Sequence record: MW822008.1
Length of the DNA: 64,000 nucleotides
Direction: 5' to 3' (one strand)
Origin: Escherichia phage BF17
This document shows positions 23,496 through 34,282 of this stretch, in pieces. The position numbers and the translations under genes were made by a program. Position 1 is the stretch's first letter, and each line of letters starts with the position of its first letter. The notes under the pieces are model-generated. The model searched no databases and had not been told where the DNA came from. It worked only from the letters and a program-made list of their open reading frames with translations.

Positions 23496-26400
23496 TTAAG
23501 CAGTACGTTGTGCAATGAACAAATCAGTAACTGAACTTACACCATCATAAATTACTTGGTAAATGGTCACGCTACCAGCAGTTTTGTTTAGTTCACCATC
23601 AACAACAGCATAAGTACCATCAGTTGTAAAGTTTCTGTTACCAGTTGTATCTTGTTTAACATAGATGTATACTGATGCAGCTTTACCACCACCAATTAGG
23701 CCAGTAATTGGAGCCAACGTGGTATCTTGGTCTAGAGTGATGAAGTATACGTTACTTGTACCATCTGGAGTCCATGTTCCGGTTGGAGCAATTACTGATG
23801 ATGTAACTTGAGTTGGGATTACATCATACTTTTTGGTAGTTACTGTTGTAGTAGTTAAGTTAGCATTAGTAGTGGTTAGTTCACCAGTTACTGTTACTGC
23901 CTTATCAAACACAGCATTTTCTTTAAATGATGAAGTTGCATTAACGGTTAGAACGTCAGCCGCTGCGTCACCTAATGTTACGTTACCATTCGCAGTTAGT
24001 GCTCCTGTTACTGCTAGTGTTCCACCTACTGTTGCGTTACCAGTAACGGATGCACTTGCAAGTGTAGCCAAACCTGATGTTGTAATTGTAGAAACGGTTG
24101 TTGCACCGAATCCAGCAGTACCAGTTGCAGAGATATTACCACCTACTGTTAGGTTACCAGCAGTGATACCAACAGTACCAGTGATGTTTGCACCACTTGA
24201 CATAGTTACTGCACCACCAAATGAACCAGTAGTAGTAACTTCTAAAGTATTACCTTTAAGCAATCCAGTTGCAGTGATAGAAGTACCAGCAGTAATTGAA
24301 GTGTTAGCAGTAATTGAAGTGCCAGCCGCTACGTTGTTAGTTGCAGTCAAAGACTTAACAGCTACATCGGAATCTGCTTGGTTCAATTGTGCATTTAGTA
24401 CACCAGTAACAGTAAAGTCACCGTTGTTTACAACGTTACCATTAACGATTAGGTTGTTGTTTTGTGAACCGACTTCACCAATTGTTGCAGAACTTGAAAT
24501 AATTGCCGCACCAGCAGTAATATTACCAGCAGAAGATAAAGAATCGGATGCTATTACTGCAAACGGTTCTAGTGTTTGTCCACCAACATCGATATCTGCG
24601 TTAATACCACCTTCAACACGTAGTTTACCAGCAATATAAGTGTCTGGCATAATCTGTACAGTTTCAGGCTGCTCACCTAATGGTGTACCAACTGTTAGAG
24701 TTGCACCAGTTTTAACAGAACCTAGTGTTGTTTGACCAACTACACCTAGTGTACCACCAACGGTTGCGTTGTTAGTTACTGCTAGACCAGTTCCTGAACC
24801 ATTCAAGGTTGCAGATGGAGCAGTTACTGCACCAGAAGTTAGTGTTCCACCAATTGTTGCTAAACCAGTTACACCTAATGTTCCACCAAGGGTAGTATTA
24901 CCTGTCGCATTTAATGTTTCAGATAGAGTTAGTGTTTTAGCAGAGATATCTGCACCAGTTAGATCTAAGCTACCAGGAGTTAGTGTTCCAACTACAGTTA
25001 CATCGTTACCAAATGTCGCAGCACCAGTAACACCAAGAGTAGTACTGAAAGAGCCACTTGTTGCAGATACACCAGAAGTTACGATAGAACCAAGTGATGC
25101 TTGACCAGTTACTCCTAATGTACCACCAATAGTTGCATTATTAGTTACTGCTAGTGCAGTACCAGTACCGCTTAGGGTTGCCGATGGAGCAGTTACTTCA
25201 CCAGTTACACCTAATGTTCCACCTACTGTTGTGTTACCACCAAAGGAAGCTGCACCATCAGAGTGAATAGTTTCAGATACTGACAAACTCTTAGCTGTAA
25301 TGTCAGCAGTTGTTAGGTCTAAACCACCTGCTGGTGTGAATACACCTTCAACAGTTACATCGTTGTCAAATGTAGCTGCACCAGTAACATCCAATGTAGA
25401 ACTAAATGTACCAGTACTACCAGATACAGCACCGGAAACCAATGAACCAACAGTTGTTACACCAGTAATATTCGCAAGACCAGTTACAGTCAATGGACCT
25501 GAAGATAATGAGCCAGTTACACCTAATGTTCCACCAACGGTCGCATTGTTAGTAACACCCAAACTACCAGCATTCACTGTGCCAGATGCAGTAACATCAG
25601 TAGTACTTACACCACCACTTAGTGTGCTTAGGCCAGTTGCAGTGATGGTTGAAGCAGTTGCAAGACTATTAGCAGAAATATCTGCACCAGTTAGGTCAAT
25701 ACCACCTTGTGGAACCAATTCACCTTCAACTGTTAGTTTCTGAACAGTACTATCACCAGATACATTTAAGGATGCAGCACTTAGTGCAGCTACTGTACTT
25801 TGACCAGTTACATTTAAAGTGGTGTTTACTGTAGTGTTGTTTAAAGTTGTATCACCGGATACTAATATAGCGTTGGTATTGATACCACCAGCATCAACTT
25901 GAATACCACCAGTGCTTACAGTTACTTTCTTGCCGATATTTACAATATCAGTTAGGGTAGTTGCACCAGTTACTGAAGCAGTACCTGCGACTGAAAGGTT
26001 TCCAGATACGGATGGGCTACCAGTTACAACACCAGTTGTTAGTACTAGGTTACCACCAACGGTAGTATTTCCAGAACTAGCAAGGGTAATTGCTGAAACA
26101 TTGGAAGAACTTAAATCAATTGAACCATTAACAACTAGGTCACCACCAATTGTAGCACCTTCTGTAGTACTTAGGGATTTAGAACTAATATCGGTAGTAC
26201 TTAGGTCGATAGAACCAGGAGTAACAGTGCCAGATACGGTCAAATCACCAGTAATAGAAGCACTTTTCGCAATGTCAATTGTATCATTAACAGAACTAAT
26301 ATTATTAACATTTAATATACCATTAATGTTTGCATTATTGTCAACACGTAAACCTTCACCAACTCCATTTAGTACAATACTTGTAGCTGTTACTTCAGTA

Positions 26401-29216
26401 GCAGATACTTGTTTTAGTGTACTTGAACCAGTTGTTTCAATAGTATCTGCACGGACAGCACCAATAGTTGCATCAGTAGTAATTAGTTTTGGTAGAGTGC
26501 TAGAATTCACTGTATCAGAAACTGTAATAACACCAGCACTTGTAATTGTCTCTGCACTTGCAAGAGATTTCACAGACACATCAGCAGCACTTAGATCAAC
26601 TGTACCTGCTACCACAAGATCGCCACCAATTGTAGCACCTTCAGTTGTGGTTAGAGACTTAGAACTAATATCAGTAGTACTTAGGTCAATTGCACCAGGG
26701 GTCAATGTCCCAGATACGTCCAAATTACCAGTGATTGTAGTGTTATTGTTAATTGCTACACCATCAGCATTGCTGATTGACGCAGTTTCAACAGATGCAC
26801 CTTTTAATACGCCAGTAGCGGTAATGTTAGTTGCAGAAGTAATAGCACCAGAAGCGTTAACACCAGCTAGAGTTGATGTACCAGTTACATTTAGTGTGGT
26901 AGCATTTGCAGTGGTTGCAGTTACTGTGGTAATATTAGCTTCAGTACTGGAAAGTTTAGGTAGAACACTACTTACTGTACCTTCAGAACTAATAACTGCA
27001 CCAGTACTGGTTAGAGATTTAACAGCAACGTCAGCAGCACTTAGATCAACTGTACCTGCAACAACTAGGTCACCACCAATGATAGCACCTTCAGAAGTTG
27101 TTAGAGACTTAGCATCAATATCAGTAGTACTTAGGTCAATTGAACCAGGGGTAAGATTTCCAGTCACAGATAGATTACCTGCAATTGAAGTGTTGTTTGT
27201 TATTGACACACCAGCAGTGTTGCTAATGATTGCAGTTTCAACAGAAGATGCCTTTAGAGCACCAGTTTCAACGCTACCAGATTTAGAAAGACCAGTTACT
27301 ACAGATGATGCACCAGAAATTTCACCAGTTGCTGTAATAGTAGAGCCAGAAATTGCAGTACCTGCAATTGCACCAGTACTATTGATTGAAGTTGCTGTAA
27401 CACCAGCAAGAGTTGATTCACCAGCAACAGATAGAGTTGTTGTAACATCAACTTTGTTTGGAGCAATATCAAGACCGTCAACGTCAGCGATTGCAGTTAC
27501 ACCAGTTGAAGTTCCAGTTACTACCAAGTCTTTAACAGTGATTGTTTGACCAGTTACGGTTACATCACCACTGAAAGTGCCAGCTACAGCAGATAAATCG
27601 CCACTAAAGGTTGCGTTATCACCGCTAACATCCCCAGTAAAGGTTGCACTTGTACCGGATACTCTATCACTGAAGATACCTTTAGAACCACTAACATCAC
27701 CACTGAAAGTACCAGAGGCAGCAGATAATGCACCAGTAACAGTTGCAGCACCACCAACTTGTAGAGATGAACCTACAGTTGTTTGACCAACTGATTCAAG
27801 AGTTTGACCTTTGATTGCTTCAGCAGCAACTACTGATTTAGGAGTTAGATCTTGTCCACTCACATCAACAGTTAGGCCAGTTACAGTACCTGTAAATTCA
27901 ACATCATTAAGAATTGCTTTACCACCAACTTGTAGTTGTGGAGTTGCAGGGTTTTGTGTTGCGTTACCAGTAATTGTTAGATAATCTAATTTGTTTAGAC
28001 CATTACCAGTAATACCATAGGTAGATAGTGCAGCAGAACCGAAGGTTGCAGTTTGTAGAACGTTCAACTTAGCAGGAGACATTAGTTCAGATTGAACTTC
28101 GTTTGCTAACAAGACTGTTGGACGTGCACTAGGTGCAGTATATGCAAAACCTAGCTTAACGTTAGCATCAGCGGTATTTTGACCCAAATTGATTGCTTTG
28201 AATGTTGCAGTACTTGCTAGACCAGTGATGTTTGCACCCAATGTAACTGCACCAGTTAGTGCTGAAGCACCGGATACTGATAATGTTGTTGCTTGGATAT
28301 CATCTAAATCAAAACTACCACCAATAGTACCAGATACGTTGATGTTGTTAAAGTTTGCAGTACCAGAACTTTCGATATTAGGAATAGTTGCTACACCAGT
28401 TACTTCTAAATCAACAACTTTAGTTTTACCTTTAGTTACTTCAAGTAAAGGAGTGGTTGGTGATTGAATTGCGTTACCAGAAATAGTTACATAATCTAAT
28501 TTGTTTAAACCATTACCTGTAATACCGTAAGTTGAAAGTGAAGAATCACCAAATGTTGCAGTTTGTAGAACATTCAACTTAGCTGGTGACATTAGTTCGG
28601 ATTGAACTTCGTTCTGTAGAAGAACGGTTGGTCGTTGTCCTGGAACGGTGTAACCAAAGTTTAGTCTATATGCTTGACCTGCTTCATTAGGCCCGATACG
28701 AATATCACGGAAGTTTGCAGTACTTGCAAGACCAGTGATATTTGCACCCAATGTGACTGAACCAGTTAGTGCTGAAGCACCAGACACATTAAGTGTTGTA
28801 GCATTAATATCAGAAAGATTAAAAGTACCACCAAGTGTACCAGAAATGTTTACATCTTTAAAAGTTGCTGTGCCAGTTGAAGTAATATCAGTTGATTCAA
28901 CAGAATCAAATGATCCTGAATTAGCTTCTAAATTATCAAATTTTGCAGTTGTTCCGACAGCAGCAGTAATGTTTCCTGCAAATGTCGCAGCACCTGAAAC
29001 ATCAGCACCACCGGATAAGGTTGCCTTACCAGCAACATCCAATGCACCTGTGACATTCACAGAACCAGCGGTAATTGCAGTGAATACTGCGTTAGCAAAA
29101 GACACTTCCCCATTAACCGTTAGGTCATTACTGAATACTGCATTACCTTTGACCAAAAGATCCTTACCTACCGTGGAATTACCAGATACATCAAGATCCG
29201 TTTTAATCGAGTACAT
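23496..29216 (-). CDS. giant repeat-containing tail fibre protein (1906 aa)
   Basis: G/T/S/A/V-rich beta-repeat composition; paralogous to 29366-34282 (shared MYSIKTDLD start and TPDGT..VYIYV C-terminus); internal tandem repeats. Confidence 0.7.
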   Translation of the reverse strand: MYSIKTDLDVSGNSTVGKDLLVKGNAVFSNDLTVNGEVSFANAVFTAITAGSVNVTGALDVAGKATLSGGADVSGAATFAGNITAAVGTTAKFDNLEANSGSFDSVESTDITSTGTATFKDVNISGTLGGTFNLSDINATTLNVSGASALTGSVTLGANITGLASTANFRDIRIGPNEAGQAYRLNFGYTVPGQRPTVLLQNEVQSELMSPAKLNVLQTATFGDSSLSTYGITGNGLNKLDYVTISGNAIQSPTTPLLEVTKGKTKVVDLEVTGVATIPNIESSGTANFNNINVSGTIGGSFDLDDIQATTLSVSGASALTGAVTLGANITGLASTATFKAINLGQNTADANVKLGFAYTAPSARPTVLLANEVQSELMSPAKLNVLQTATFGSAALSTYGITGNGLNKLDYLTITGNATQNPATPQLQVGGKAILNDVEFTGTVTGLTVDVSGQDLTPKSVVAAEAIKGQTLESVGQTTVGSSLQVGGAATVTGALSAASGTFSGDVSGSKGIFSDRVSGTSATFTGDVSGDNATFSGDLSAVAGTFSGDVTVTGQTITVKDLVVTGTSTGVTAIADVDGLDIAPNKVDVTTTLSVAGESTLAGVTATSINSTGAIAGTAISGSTITATGEISGASSVVTGLSKSGSVETGALKASSVETAIISNTAGVSITNNTSIAGNLSVTGNLTPGSIDLSTTDIDAKSLTTSEGAIIGGDLVVAGTVDLSAADVAVKSLTSTGAVISSEGTVSSVLPKLSSTEANITTVTATTANATTLNVTGTSTLAGVNASGAITSATNITATGVLKGASVETASISNADGVAINNNTTITGNLDVSGTLTPGAIDLSTTDISSKSLTTTEGATIGGDLVVAGTVDLSAADVSVKSLASAETITSAGVITVSDTVNSSTLPKLITTDATIGAVRADTIETTGSSTLKQVSATEVTATSIVLNGVGEGLRVDNNANINGILNVNNISSVNDTIDIAKSASITGDLTVSGTVTPGSIDLSTTDISSKSLSTTEGATIGGDLVVNGSIDLSSSNVSAITLASSGNTTVGGNLVLTTGVVTGSPSVSGNLSVAGTASVTGATTLTDIVNIGKKVTVSTGGIQVDAGGINTNAILVSGDTTLNNTTVNTTLNVTGQSTVAALSAASLNVSGDSTVQKLTVEGELVPQGGIDLTGADISANSLATASTITATGLSTLSGGVSTTDVTASGTVNAGSLGVTNNATVGGTLGVTGSLSSGPLTVTGLANITGVTTVGSLVSGAVSGSTGTFSSTLDVTGAATFDNDVTVEGVFTPAGGLDLTTADITAKSLSVSETIHSDGAASFGGNTTVGGTLGVTGEVTAPSATLSGTGTALAVTNNATIGGTLGVTGQASLGSIVTSGVSATSGSFSTTLGVTGAATFGNDVTVVGTLTPGSLDLTGADISAKTLTLSETLNATGNTTLGGTLGVTGLATIGGTLTSGAVTAPSATLNGSGTGLAVTNNATVGGTLGVVGQTTLGSVKTGATLTVGTPLGEQPETVQIMPDTYIAGKLRVEGGINADIDVGGQTLEPFAVIASDSLSSAGNITAGAAIISSSATIGEVGSQNNNLIVNGNVVNNGDFTVTGVLNAQLNQADSDVAVKSLTATNNVAAGTSITANTSITAGTSITATGLLKGNTLEVTTTGSFGGAVTMSSGANITGTVGITAGNLTVGGNISATGTAGFGATTVSTITTSGLATLASASVTGNATVGGTLAVTGALTANGNVTLGDAAADVLTVNATSSFKENAVFDKAVTVTGELTTTNANLTTTTVTTKKYDVIPTQVTSSVIAPTGTWTPDGTSNVYFITLDQDTTLAPITGLIGGGKAASVYIYVKQDTTGNRNFTTDGTYAVVDGELNKTAGSVTIYQVIYDGVSSVTDLFIAQRTA
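24266..24490. repeat. near-identical ~210-225-bp segment shared with 30093-30300, with 18-bp unit copy-number difference
   Basis: Direct read: CCAGTTGCAGTGATAGAAGTACCAGCAGTAATTGAAGT ... CACCAATTGTTGCAG in both genes; this copy has an extra 18-bp unit (GTSITA x3 vs x2). Confidence 0.8.
26100..27260. repeat. three tandem copies of a ~450-bp coding repeat within the 1906-aa fibre gene
   Basis: Recurring block ...CTTAGGTCAATTGAACCAGGGGT... ; protein repeat TPGxIDLSTTDISSKSL.TTEGATIGGDLVVAGTVDLSAADV x3. Confidence 0.7.
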
Positions 29217-29365: not shown

Positions 29366-32300
29366 TTATACACGTTGTGCAACGAAGGTATCAAACACAG
29401 TACTGAAACCATCATAGATTACTTGGATAATACTTGTTTGACCAACTACAGCACTTACTGTACCAGAAACTACAGAGTATGCACCACCGAAGGTGAAAGT
29501 AGTATCAGCAACAGATGGAGTTACATAGATATACACTGAACATGCTTGACCACTACCAATTAGACCCGCGATGGAATCCATTGTAACACTTTGGTCAAGA
29601 GTTAAGCGATATACGTTAGTAGTACCATCTGGTGTCCAAGTGCCACCTACAGCAGCAGTAGAAGCAGTAACACTAGCAGGGATAACAGAATATTTCTTAG
29701 TTACCATGTTGTTTGTAGTGAAGTTTGCAGTGGTGGTGTTAATAGAACCAGTCACTGTTAGGTTCTTATCAAATGTTGCGTTCTCTTTAAATGTAGATGT
29801 TGCATTTACAGTTAAAGTATCAGCAGCAGCATCACCAATCACAGTGTTACCATTTGCAGTTAATGTACCACCTACAGTTAGATCACCAGTTACAGATGCA
29901 CTTGCCATTGTAACAGCACCAGTTGTAGTAATGGTTGTTGCAGTTAGTGCTTGGAAGCTTGATTCTTCTGTTGCAATTACTGAACCATCAACATGCATGT
30001 CACCACCTGAAACATCAGCACCACCTAGTAGGCTTACTTTACCACCGAACGAACCAGTAGTCGTGATAACAAGAGAGTTACCATTCAATGCACCAGTTGC
30101 AGTGATAGAAGTACCAGCAGTAATTGAAGTACCAGCCGCTACGTTGTTAGTTGCAGTCAAAGACTTAACAGCTACATCGGAATCTGCTTGGTTCAATTGT
30201 GCATTTAGTACCCCAGTAACGGTGAAGTCACCATTAGTTACTACGTTACCATTAACAGTTAGGTTGTTGTTTTGTGAACCAACATCACCAATTGTTGCAG
30301 CTTTAGAAACGATGGTTGCACCAGAAGTAATGTTACCAACAGCAGATAGTGTTGCAGCAGCTTCAATTGCATATGGTTCTAGTGTTTGACCACTTACGTC
30401 GATTTCAGCGTTAATACCACCGATTACACGCAATTTACCAGCAATATAAGTATCTGGAATGATCTGTACAGTTTCAGGTTGTTCACCAACTGGAGTACCA
30501 ACAGTTAGGGTTGTGCCAGTTTTCACTGCACCAGTAGCTGTTAGTGAAGATACAGTAGTAGCACCAGTAACATCTAGAGTGCCAGTTACACCCAAATTAC
30601 CACCAACTGATGCGTTTGCAGTAGAAGTTAAACTTCCAACAGTTGCTAGACCAGATGCAGTCACAGTAGAAGTACTAACACCACCACTTAGAGTACTTAG
30701 GCCAGTTGCATTGATAGTTGTTGCAGTAGTTAGACTATTAGCAGTAATGTCTGCACCGCTTAGGTCAAGACCACCTTGTGGGATCAATTCACCTTGGACA
30801 GTTAGTTTCTGAACAGTACTGTCACCAGAAACTGTTAGTGATGTCGCAGATACACCTGCTAGAGTAGAAGCACCAGTTACACCTAAAGTTCCAGTAATGG
30901 AAGTTCCTGCTAGAGTAGAAGCACCAGAAACGTTAATTGTGTTAGTATTGATACCACCATCAACTACCTGAATACCACCAGTACTCACTGTTACTTTCTT
31001 ACCGATATTAACAATATCAGTTAGGTTAACAGCACCAGTTACACCAAGAGTTCCACCGATTGTTGTATTACCAGAGATAGCTGGGCTACCAGTCACAACA
31101 CCAGTTGTTAGTACTAGATCAGTTCCAACAGTAGTAGAACCAGTACTTGCTAGACTTGCAGCTACAAGGTTAGTTGCACTTAAGTCGAATGCACCATCTA
31201 CAGTTAGGTCACCAGCAATGTGTGCGTTACCTAGTGAATCAAGAGATTTAACGGTTACATCAGTATTGCTTAGGTCGATTGAACCAGCAGTTAGTGTACC
31301 AGATACAGCTAAATCACCAGTGATTGCAGTATTTTTTGCAATATTAAGAGAAGCAGCAGTTGTTGTTAAAGAACCAACAGTTGCAATGCCACCAACAGAT
31401 AATGCACCACCAACGTTTGCATCATTATCAACTTGAAGACCAAGGCCACTACCAGAAAATTCAGCACTAGTAGCAGTTACTTGAGTAGCTGATACACTTT
31501 GTAGTACACTGTTGCCAGTTGCATTAATAGTACCTGCATTTACTGTAAAGAGTGTTGCATCAGTTGAAGTAATTTTAGGTAACGAACTAGTATTGGTTGA
31601 ATCGGTAACGGTAATAACACCAGCACTTGTAATTGTCTCTGCACTTGCAAGAGATTTCACAGACACATCAGCAGCACTTAGGTCAAAAGTACCATCAACT
31701 ACTAAGTTTCCACCAACATTAACATCAGCAGTAGTAGTTAGTGAGTTTGCAGTAATATCAACAGTTGTTAGATCAAGACCACCTTCAGGTTTGAATACAC
31801 CAGTGACAGTTAGATCTTTTGCCGCGACAACATTACTTGCTAGATTTAGTGTACCAGCACCAGCAGCTTCAGCTTGTAAAGTTGGAACTGTTACAGAAGT
31901 TGTGATTGTTGCAGTACCAGAAGACAAACGCGAACCAGATACTACACCAGTACTAGTTAGTGTTCCTACTTTCGCTGCACCAGTAGTAGTTAGTGTTCCA
32001 CCTGAAACGTCACCAGTTGCGACAACAGAAGATGCATTAATTACACCAAATGTACTTGGGTTAGTTGCACTAACTGATTTTGTTACTACATCAGCAGCAG
32101 ACAAATCAATAGCACCAGTTACTGCAAGAGAACCACCCACAGTTACGTTACCAGTAGTTGTTAAAGAAGCAGCACTTACATCAGTAGTGCTTAAATCTAT
32201 ACTACTCGGAGTTAGTGTTCCAGTAATAGTTACGTTATTAGCAAAAGTAGTGTCACCAGTAATACTTGGAACAGTTAGTGAAGCCATAGAACCAGCACCA

Positions 32301-34282
32301 GTTACTGCAAGAGAACCACCAGATAGTGCACCAGCCGCAGTTACTGTATTACCAGATACAGACGCACCAGTAACATCACCAGTACTGGTTACTGAACTAG
32401 CAGTTAGGCCAGCTAAAGTAGTGTCCCCAGCAACAGATAGTGTTGTTGTAACATCAACTTTATTTGGGGCGATATCAAGACCATCAACATCAGCTTGGGC
32501 AGTTACACCAGTAGTTGTACCAGTTACTACTAAATCACGTACAGTTACAGTTTGACCAGTAACGCTAACATCACCACTGAAAGTACCTTTAGCAGCACTT
32601 ACGTCACCAGTGAAGGTTGCAGCAGTACCAGTTAGTGCACCAACAACATTAGCTGTTCCACCAACTTGTAGGTTAGTTCCTACGGTGGTTTGACCAACAG
32701 ATTCAAGGGTTTGTCCTTTGATTGCTTCAGCAGCAACAACAGATTTAGGAGTTAGGTCTTGACCACTTACATCAACTGTTAGGCCAGTTACAGTACCAGT
32801 GAATTCAACATCATTTAGTACTGATTTACCAGCTACTTGTAGTTGTGGTGTTGCTGGACTTTGTGTACCATTACCAGTAATAGATAGATAATCTAGTTTG
32901 TTTAGACCGTTACCTGTGATACCATAGGTTGCAAGAGATGCATCACCAAAGGTAGCAGTTTTTTGTACATTTAGTACTGCTGGAGATACTAGTTCAGACT
33001 GAATTTCATTTTGTAGAATTACAGTTGGACGAGCACCAGGGGCAGAATAAGCAAAACCATACTTAACGTTAGCATCGGCTGCGTTTTGTCCTAAACTTAC
33101 TGCTTTAAAATTAGCAGTACTATTAGCACCGGAAATATCAGCACCCAAAGTTACACCACCAACAAGGCTAGTTAATCCAGAAACAGTTAGAGTGTTTGCT
33201 TCAATATCATCAAGACTGAAAGTACCGCCGAGTGTACCAGATACGTTGATGTTATTAAAATTAGCAGTACCAGTACTTTCAATGTTAGGAATAGTTGCAG
33301 TTCCTGTTACTTCGAAATCATGAACTTTAGTTTTACCTGAAGTTACTTGTAATAGTGGAGTTGTTGGATCTTGAACAGAGTTACCAGATACTGTTAGGTA
33401 ATCTAGTTTGTTTAGACCATTACCAGTAATACCAAAAGTGGATAATGACGAATCACCAAAAGATGCAGTTTTCAATACACTTAGGGTAGCTGGAGACATC
33501 AATTCTGATTGGATTTCGTTCTGTAGAATTACAGTTGGACGAAGACTTGGAGCAGAATAGTTAAAGCTCAAACGGTAGTTAGTGTTTGCAGCATTGGAAC
33601 CAATTTTAATATCACGGAAGTTTGCACTACTATTCACACCAGTAATGTTGGAACCTAATGTAACACCACCTTGTAGACTGGTCAAACCAGAAACAGTTAG
33701 AGTTGTTGCATTAACATCAGATAGACTAAATGTTCCACCTAGTGTACCGGAAATATTCACATCTTTAAAGTTTGCAGTTCCAGTTGATGTAATATCAGTA
33801 GTTGCAGTGTTTGTGAATGTTGCATCAGTTGCAGTTATTGTGTCAAATGCTGCGGTAGTGCCAGTTTCAGCAGTAATGTTACCTTTAAATGAAGAAGTTC
33901 CAAGAACATCCATTGATGCCACTTGGGTATCTTTTAGTACAGCAGTGCCAGCGGTTTGTGTTAGGTTACCTGCCATTGATACTGGGCTTTGGAATTGTGC
34001 ATTAGAATTAATCGTTGCAGTATCAGAACCAACAGGTAAATTACCAATTACGGAATTACCATGAACTTCAATTCCACCATTCAATGATGCTTTACCAGCA
34101 ACATCTAGTGTAGATGAAATGTCTACAGTTTCTGCTTCAATTGCAGTGAATACAGCGTCAGCAAAAGTTACAGTTCCATTAACTGTTAGATTTTTATTGA
34201 ATACTGCATCGCCTTTCACAAGAAGATCTTTAGCAACCGTTGCACCACCAGTTATATCGAGATCTGTTTTAATCGAGTACAT
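29366..34282 (-). CDS. giant repeat-containing tail fibre protein (1638 aa), paralogue
   Basis: Same composition and shared N- and C-terminal modules as 23496-29216; GGAGGG RBS. Confidence 0.7.
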   Translation of the reverse strand: MYSIKTDLDITGGATVAKDLLVKGDAVFNKNLTVNGTVTFADAVFTAIEAETVDISSTLDVAGKASLNGGIEVHGNSVIGNLPVGSDTATINSNAQFQSPVSMAGNLTQTAGTAVLKDTQVASMDVLGTSSFKGNITAETGTTAAFDTITATDATFTNTATTDITSTGTANFKDVNISGTLGGTFSLSDVNATTLTVSGLTSLQGGVTLGSNITGVNSSANFRDIKIGSNAANTNYRLSFNYSAPSLRPTVILQNEIQSELMSPATLSVLKTASFGDSSLSTFGITGNGLNKLDYLTVSGNSVQDPTTPLLQVTSGKTKVHDFEVTGTATIPNIESTGTANFNNINVSGTLGGTFSLDDIEANTLTVSGLTSLVGGVTLGADISGANSTANFKAVSLGQNAADANVKYGFAYSAPGARPTVILQNEIQSELVSPAVLNVQKTATFGDASLATYGITGNGLNKLDYLSITGNGTQSPATPQLQVAGKSVLNDVEFTGTVTGLTVDVSGQDLTPKSVVAAEAIKGQTLESVGQTTVGTNLQVGGTANVVGALTGTAATFTGDVSAAKGTFSGDVSVTGQTVTVRDLVVTGTTTGVTAQADVDGLDIAPNKVDVTTTLSVAGDTTLAGLTASSVTSTGDVTGASVSGNTVTAAGALSGGSLAVTGAGSMASLTVPSITGDTTFANNVTITGTLTPSSIDLSTTDVSAASLTTTGNVTVGGSLAVTGAIDLSAADVVTKSVSATNPSTFGVINASSVVATGDVSGGTLTTTGAAKVGTLTSTGVVSGSRLSSGTATITTSVTVPTLQAEAAGAGTLNLASNVVAAKDLTVTGVFKPEGGLDLTTVDITANSLTTTADVNVGGNLVVDGTFDLSAADVSVKSLASAETITSAGVITVTDSTNTSSLPKITSTDATLFTVNAGTINATGNSVLQSVSATQVTATSAEFSGSGLGLQVDNDANVGGALSVGGIATVGSLTTTAASLNIAKNTAITGDLAVSGTLTAGSIDLSNTDVTVKSLDSLGNAHIAGDLTVDGAFDLSATNLVAASLASTGSTTVGTDLVLTTGVVTGSPAISGNTTIGGTLGVTGAVNLTDIVNIGKKVTVSTGGIQVVDGGINTNTINVSGASTLAGTSITGTLGVTGASTLAGVSATSLTVSGDSTVQKLTVQGELIPQGGLDLSGADITANSLTTATTINATGLSTLSGGVSTSTVTASGLATVGSLTSTANASVGGNLGVTGTLDVTGATTVSSLTATGAVKTGTTLTVGTPVGEQPETVQIIPDTYIAGKLRVIGGINAEIDVSGQTLEPYAIEAAATLSAVGNITSGATIVSKAATIGDVGSQNNNLTVNGNVVTNGDFTVTGVLNAQLNQADSDVAVKSLTATNNVAAGTSITAGTSITATGALNGNSLVITTTGSFGGKVSLLGGADVSGGDMHVDGSVIATEESSFQALTATTITTTGAVTMASASVTGDLTVGGTLTANGNTVIGDAAADTLTVNATSTFKENATFDKNLTVTGSINTTTANFTTNNMVTKKYSVIPASVTASTAAVGGTWTPDGTTNVYRLTLDQSVTMDSIAGLIGSGQACSVYIYVTPSVADTTFTFGGAYSVVSGTVSAVVGQTSIIQVIYDGFSTVFDTFVAQRV

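Follow-up and report, generated by a model that had tools for sequence, protein, structure and literature searches.

The two giant tail fibre genes described here, F1 and F2, differ by one unit of an in-frame tandem repeat, which is present three times in F1 and twice in F2. We consider it likely that F1 gained its additional unit in a single, old event, that the 3-versus-2 count has been fixed, and that the F1 array of the window (the whole 64-kb stretch of DNA that was analysed) and of phage Turkey3 was recently altered by conversion between F1 and F2 at a module common to both genes. Each array would then be a brief series of six-residue units (G/N-T-x-I/L-T/S-A) within the distal shaft of a duplicated fibre, and the F1 of the window clade would have gained one extra unit, once and long ago. 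In the window/Turkey3 lineage the F1 array would have been overwritten by F2-like sequence via short-tract gene conversion, possibly combined with exchange between units, which would leave near-identical units at a count of still three. The module beside the array would supply the homology for these conversions and for swaps of the cassette that lies beyond.

Two tandem fibre genes with hexapeptide arrays

Both genes are encoded on the minus strand, F1 at 23496-29216 (1906 aa) and its tandem paralog F2 at 29366-34282 (1638 aa). They belong to PHROG 4549, and the matches to phrog_4549 (tail fiber protein) have E-values of 5.3e-203 for F1 and 2.4e-182 for F2. At the nucleotide level F1 matches 31 phage records, 30 from Escherichia and one from Salmonella, and is 99.3% identical to Turkey3 and 97.6% to fEgEco12. 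In annotated relatives the gene order is thymidylate synthase, a 654-aa protein, a 259-aa protein, F1, F2, a 299-aa protein and a colanidase tailspike. The window shares this order, with the fibres placed between the genes for the 259-aa and 299-aa structural proteins and near the colanidase tailspike gene. The window belongs to an Asteriusvirus-type jumbo coliphage. The known Asteriusvirus fibres (121Q gp571, phAPEC6 gp256 and fEgEco12 g316/g317) are homologous along their length, lie in the same neighbourhood and have the same conserved module followed by hexapeptide units; F1 is related to both 121Q gp571 and phAPEC6 gp256. In phAPEC6, mass spectrometry of virions found gp256 with 15 unique peptides and 15.9% coverage (PMC7247149).

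Full-length F1 and F2 gave no significant Pfam family. In the Pfam search the Hexapep profile (left-handed beta-helix) had no match in the fibres, and bactofilin (PF04519) stayed below threshold with 22 bits versus a cut-off of 27.9, at residues 252-325 of the F2 C-terminal fragment and away from the array. The exact F1 and F2 proteins were absent from a collection of 15 billion proteins. When the C-terminal 401 aa were used in a word-indexed protein search, low-complexity candidates swamped it and only three weak matches came back, and a protein-based scan of IMG/VR returned 121Q itself only.

The F1 array (24270-24323, minus strand; F1 aa 1632-1649) is built from three 18-nt units, which read GGCACTTCAATTACTGCT, AACACTTCAATTACTGCT and GGTACTTCTATCACTGCA on the coding strand and encode GTSITA, NTSITA and GTSITA. 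These units are arranged head-to-tail, in frame, and are near-identical. In the F2 array (30098-30133, minus strand; F2 aa 1384-1395) the two units are GGTACTTCAATTACTGCT and GGTACTTCTATCACTGCA, both encoding GTSITA. Tandem Repeats Finder (TRF) reports an 18-nt period for both arrays, with 3.1 copies in F1 (24271-24326, score 77, 81% matches) and 2.1 copies in F2 (30099-30136, score 62). A preliminary description of this DNA had given the 18-bp unit as present three times in one fibre and twice in the other, and these copy numbers, together with the in-frame reading of the arrays, bear this out. Its translation of the units as GTSITA x3 versus x2 is right for F2 and for units 1 and 3 of F1, but the middle unit of F1 is NTSITA.

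Both genes are full of degenerate internal repeats, with 20 direct-repeat families in 11 kb, so that the arrays might be seen as a chance by-product of low-complexity, Gly/Thr/Ser/Ala-rich fibre sequence that has no repeat history at all. We regard this as extremely improbable. When the codons of both ORFs were shuffled 200 times, only 1 shuffle scored as high in TRF as the F1 array (77 or more), and 10 had at least 62. The 16-mer AGCAGTAATTGAAGTG is found exactly at 24288 and 24306, 18 nt apart, and with one mismatch at 30116; allowing up to two mismatches there are four matches in the 64-kb window versus 0.06 expected. The hexapeptide periodicity is moreover conserved in homologues at the exact position of the array.

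Other repeats are found elsewhere in both genes. An in-frame tandem repeat of 11 residues (33 nt), with the unit [GA]-T/I-F-S/T-G/D-D-V/L-S-x-x-x, is located at 27549-27713 (F1 aa 502-556) and at 32555-32620 (F2 aa 555-576). It has five units in F1, two in F2 and four in the JNE01-type fibre B (P0005), and like the hexapeptide array its count is constant in all examined orthologues of the window clade. The top-scoring tandem repeat of both genes in TRF has a 33-nt period as well (F2 31945-32017, 2.2 copies, score 83). Large internal duplications cover 26054-27266 and 27928-28876 in F1 and 31123-31776 and 32835-33783 in F2 (repeat families D3-D6; periods 510 nt and 450-480 nt); successive duplications of segments of about 150-170 residues evidently gave rise to the fibre shafts. 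Far from the array, a 71-nt stretch is exactly identical between F1 (26524-26594) and F2 (31611-31681) in surroundings of about 60-75% identity, and it may be a second conversion island.

Unit number among related phages

The array was read directly in 15 further phage genomes and six metagenome loci. Nine genomes carry both F1 and F2 (the window, Turkey3, fEgEco12, WPEC5, EC.P1, CMSTMSU, WPEC3, Ecwhy_1 and vB_Ec-M-J), and in all nine of them F1 has three units and F2 has two. Phages of the 121Q type have one fibre gene with two units, in contrast to the two tandem paralogs of the window clade, where F1 has three. Two units were read directly in 121Q, TH47, UE-S1, ph0011 and phAPEC6, in fibre A of JNE01 and of Turkey5, and in a 121Q-like metagenome contig (L017). 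For 15 further 121Q-like records, which represent 14 phages, the tblastn matches are six residues short of the F1 query, like that of 121Q, and from this match length we infer that they carry two units as well. Two units are thus the common state and probably the ancestral one, as far as can be read from mosaic genes of imperfect orthology. No copy-number polymorphism was found among close relatives, that is in nine F1, nine F2 and the F2-like or 121Q-type fibres of more than 20 further records, and the fibre genes compared diverge by up to about 25% in nucleotides.

Over the family as a whole, proteins have between about one and three units. Distant homologues, giant proteins that start with MYSIK or MYNI and retain the pattern LxVNGNVxxxGxFxVxGxIxGTLDQSxSxVxVKSL, have about one unit, or two in the case of one protein (P0007). 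Fibre B of JNE01 has an F1-like C-terminus with about one degenerate unit. Since the count is invariant within orthologous groups, yet varies from one to three across the family, it has changed rarely; units have been gained or lost in the evolution of the family, but seldom and over long times. The gain in F1 is dated as old because the three units are diverged from each other in most relatives. The 3-versus-2 difference is accordingly read as a fixed, paralog-specific character and not as a live length polymorphism.

At the site of the fibres, 121Q, phAPEC6, ph0011 and UE-S1 have a single giant fibre gene, while the window clade, JNE01 and Turkey5 have two in tandem. The second fibre seems to have arisen within the genus, by gene duplication or by acquisition. 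In the CMSTMSU record (MH494197) both fibre genes are broken into many short ORFs labelled 'flagellar hook-length control protein', and in that of vB_Ec-M-J (OQ718158) F2 is broken in two. These splits probably stem from frameshift errors in the database entries and have no biological meaning.

The preliminary description had taken the array for a repeat of the kind that changes by slippage. Parts of this stand: the repeat is an in-frame tandem, the paralogs differ by one unit, and the family covers a range of one to three. What does not stand is the expected instability, as the count is fixed in nine of nine F1 and nine of nine F2 genes. Equivalent variation among related phages, which had been named as the point on which slippage could fail, is absent from these two sets, and this speaks largely against active slippage. 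In its full form such an explanation would see the array as a slippage-prone locus of the VNTR or contingency type, whose fluctuating copy number tunes fibre length or register. As in such loci, the units are head-to-tail and in frame, and the copy number differs between gene copies. The two exact 16-mers 18 nt apart would be a suitable substrate in the window lineage, the unit number differs between the paralogs and across the family, and a second six-residue indel is found nearby. Unlike VNTR or contingency loci, however, the orthologues are free of count polymorphism (no variant in nine F1, nine F2 and the single fibres of more than 20 further records), two or three units make a very short array, and the units of most relatives have diverged too far for slippage. 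The nearby indel does not help either. F2 has a length of 4917 nt in some relatives and 4935 nt in others, and this 18-nt difference was considered as a repeat change and rejected, as the indel (TVGITA) sits outside the array, about 40 codons away, and goes with a swapped distal cassette. Taken together, we hold active slippage to be quite improbable.

Sequence exchange between F1 and F2 at a common module

The array borders the distal end of a module, about 430 nt (about 140 residues) in length, that the two paralogs have in common and that lies on the N-terminal side of the array. Its F1 copy spans 24324-24750 and its F2 copy 30134-30560, both on the minus strand. The module encodes TLTVGTP..GEQPETVQI..NNLxVNGNVVxNGDFTVTGVLNAQLNQADSDVAVKSLTATNNVAA and is also kept in distant homologues. 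In every phage the F1 and F2 copies are 80-100% identical in nucleotides, and outside the module the genes share only 40-70%. F1 and F2 have their longest exact match, 80 nt at 24322-24401 and 30132-30211, directly beside the array. A block of about 210 bp common to both fibres had already been described, and it was recovered here as 196 of 207 identical positions (94.7%) with a single 18-nt gap between F1 24265-24490 and F2 30093-30300. The similarity reaches well past this block, with 80-100% identity up to about 24750. Crossovers and conversion tracts start in this module, as they should wherever identity is high, and the array is situated at its boundary.

On the C-terminal side of the array each gene continues into a distal cassette. 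That of F1 (24090-24269, minus strand; GLLKGNTLEVTTTGSFGGAVTMSSGANITGTVGITAG...) is 88-98% identical to the F2 cassette in fEgEco12-type phages, versus 38-75% in the window. The F2 cassette of the window (29897-30097, minus strand; GALNGNSLVITTTGSFGGKVSLLGGADVSGGDMHVDG...) is one of three alleles and is devoid of TVGITA. These alleles of about 200 nt are found in close relatives as a window/Turkey3 type, a WPEC3 type and an fEgEco12 type, the last of which has the six extra residues TVGITA. Directly past the array, the F2 of the window diverges both from F1 and from the fEgEco12-type F2. This allele pattern looks like cassette exchange at a segment that may be receptor-proximal.

Near-identical F1 units are confined to the window and Turkey3. 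In the F1 of the seven other two-fibre relatives the units are diverged (GTTLSA-GTAITA-GTSITA), and unit 1 shows at least 6 differences in 18 positions to each of the other units. A comparison of the window F1 with that of fEgEco12 localizes the change. Over most of the distal region the two are 97-100% identical, with 90-95% in two intervals near 24200, and identity goes down to 80% only in the two intervals that span the array. Of the 16 differences in a 205-nt stretch, 13 fall inside 60 nt at the array, a clustering with a binomial P of about 1.6e-9 given a background of 2.4%. The new sequence resembles F2: unit 3 of F1 equals unit 2 of F2 at 18 of 18 positions, including a TCT codon that is private to the window/Turkey3 lineage, unit 1 of F1 differs from unit 1 of F2 at one of 18 positions, and the GCG GCT upstream of the F1 array is F2-like. 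The near-perfect identity of the F1 units is therefore owed to a recent local sequence replacement and not to a recent change in copy number. The match of this patch to F2 suggests gene conversion between the paralogs that left the number of units unaltered.

How the conversion proceeded can be modelled in two ways. If the F1 array is modelled as an F2 array with unit 1 duplicated, four mismatches are left in the array (GGT to GGC and GGT to AAC). One route would be a conversion from F2 followed by duplication of a unit, with four further substitutions. The other would be one heteroduplex between a three-unit and a two-unit array, in which the extra unit was kept as a loop, with five further substitutions. 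Both are about equally good, and with four versus five substitutions they are inseparable. The F1 array of the window was also considered as proof of a recent unit duplication; this was rejected, because a heteroduplex with the third unit as a loop fits about equally well.

The donor might also have been a third phage allele outside our sampling, which would account for the leftover mismatches about equally well; in this case the F1 array of the window and Turkey3 would have been imported and not converted from the resident F2. Among the sampled F1 and F2 alleles, none has the AAC codon seen in the middle unit or the GGC codon seen in unit 1, and with three F2 alleles the distal cassettes are clearly exchanged between phages, both of which would suit an import. 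However, the patch is only about 60 nt long, and it has the lineage-private TCT codon and the GCG GCT flank in common with the resident F2. No other donor was found among 50,697 phage records or in the scanned metagenome and viral contigs, where an exact-pattern scan with a 35-nt conserved anchor gave no match. An import is thus unlikely in our view, and conversion between the resident paralogs stays the preferred reading.

Further traces of exchange are found in F2. The F2 of WPEC5 carries an F1-like patch over unit 2, which the F2 of EC.P1 and of fEgEco12 are free of, and the F2 of the window and of Turkey3 have the same patch as WPEC5. At the diagnostic sites upstream of the module, the F1 of vB_Ec-M-J mostly has the bases of F2, and past the module it has those of F1; this gene is a paralog chimera whose breakpoint lies in the module. 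Exchange between F1 and F2 is thus recurrent, with an unchanged unit count in every case. Our literature searches on tail-fibre genes returned nothing specific on slippage of tandem repeats or on gene conversion between paralogs, and the passages on Asteriusvirus retrieved by keyword make no mention of the repeat or of paralog exchange.

Fibre structure and comparison with known systems

Homology to the long tail fibre of Pectobacterium phage phiTE (PDB 9CUY/9MJN chain g; E=2.4e-13 for 9CUY chain g) covers the C-terminal 250 or so residues. phiTE has a trimeric fibre, whose unresolved part was modelled with AlphaFold and has been described as a highly extended beta-helix (PMC11972413). Of its 793 aa only residues 14-171 are modelled experimentally, and the region equivalent to the array has no solved structure. 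An AlphaFold2 monomer of the C-terminal 434 aa of F1 reached a pLDDT of 41 when run without an alignment. With an alignment of nine sequences, the array had a pLDDT of about 49-64 and no intrachain secondary structure, and the terminal globular domain (fragment residues about 300-400) had a pLDDT of 79-92. A Foldseek search of the F1 C-terminal model against the PDB gave no match at E <= 0.001, the best being the Pa223 capsid spike (E=0.014, TM about 0.2). By analogy with phiTE, each unit probably forms a single short beta-strand in every chain of an elongated shaft that is itself probably a trimer. The additional unit of F1 would then increase the length of its fibre, which has about 1900 residues, by far less than 1%. 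Two independent six-residue indels are found within 50 residues, and this hints at six residues as the tolerated step size.

Mosaicism is a known theme in phage fibres. Tetart and co-workers in 1998 and Sandmeier in 1994 reportedly described the T-even distal fibre genes (gp37/gp38) as mosaics that arise by recombination at short conserved motifs. The situation in the window is similar in that exchanged segments are bounded by a conserved island within fibre genes that are otherwise divergent, and the conversion patches and swapped cassettes of the window fibres start at or beside the module, comparable to the T-even motifs. It differs in the proteins and motifs involved, and exchange takes place also between the paralogs of one genome. 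Short-tract conversion between the two genes at a common module hence belongs to a type of process already familiar from phage fibres. One may speculate, albeit with considerable doubt, that module and array form a built-in recombination joint for cassette exchange, both between the two resident fibres and with relatives that co-infect the cell, and that selection holds the counts at three and two. Selection is proposed here since the array was overwritten repeatedly while its number of units stayed the same. If such a joint existed, the number of six-residue rungs would set the register or length that is required for each fibre.

What appeared to be a hypervariable repeat is thus a fixed character that separates two paralogous fibres, and taken alone it matters little. 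F1 and F2 exchange short tracts and distal cassettes at the common module, and this is useful to consider in annotation, in host-range comparison and in fibre engineering. Here, the module may serve as a natural splice point, and the unit count as a simple marker that distinguishes F1 from F2.
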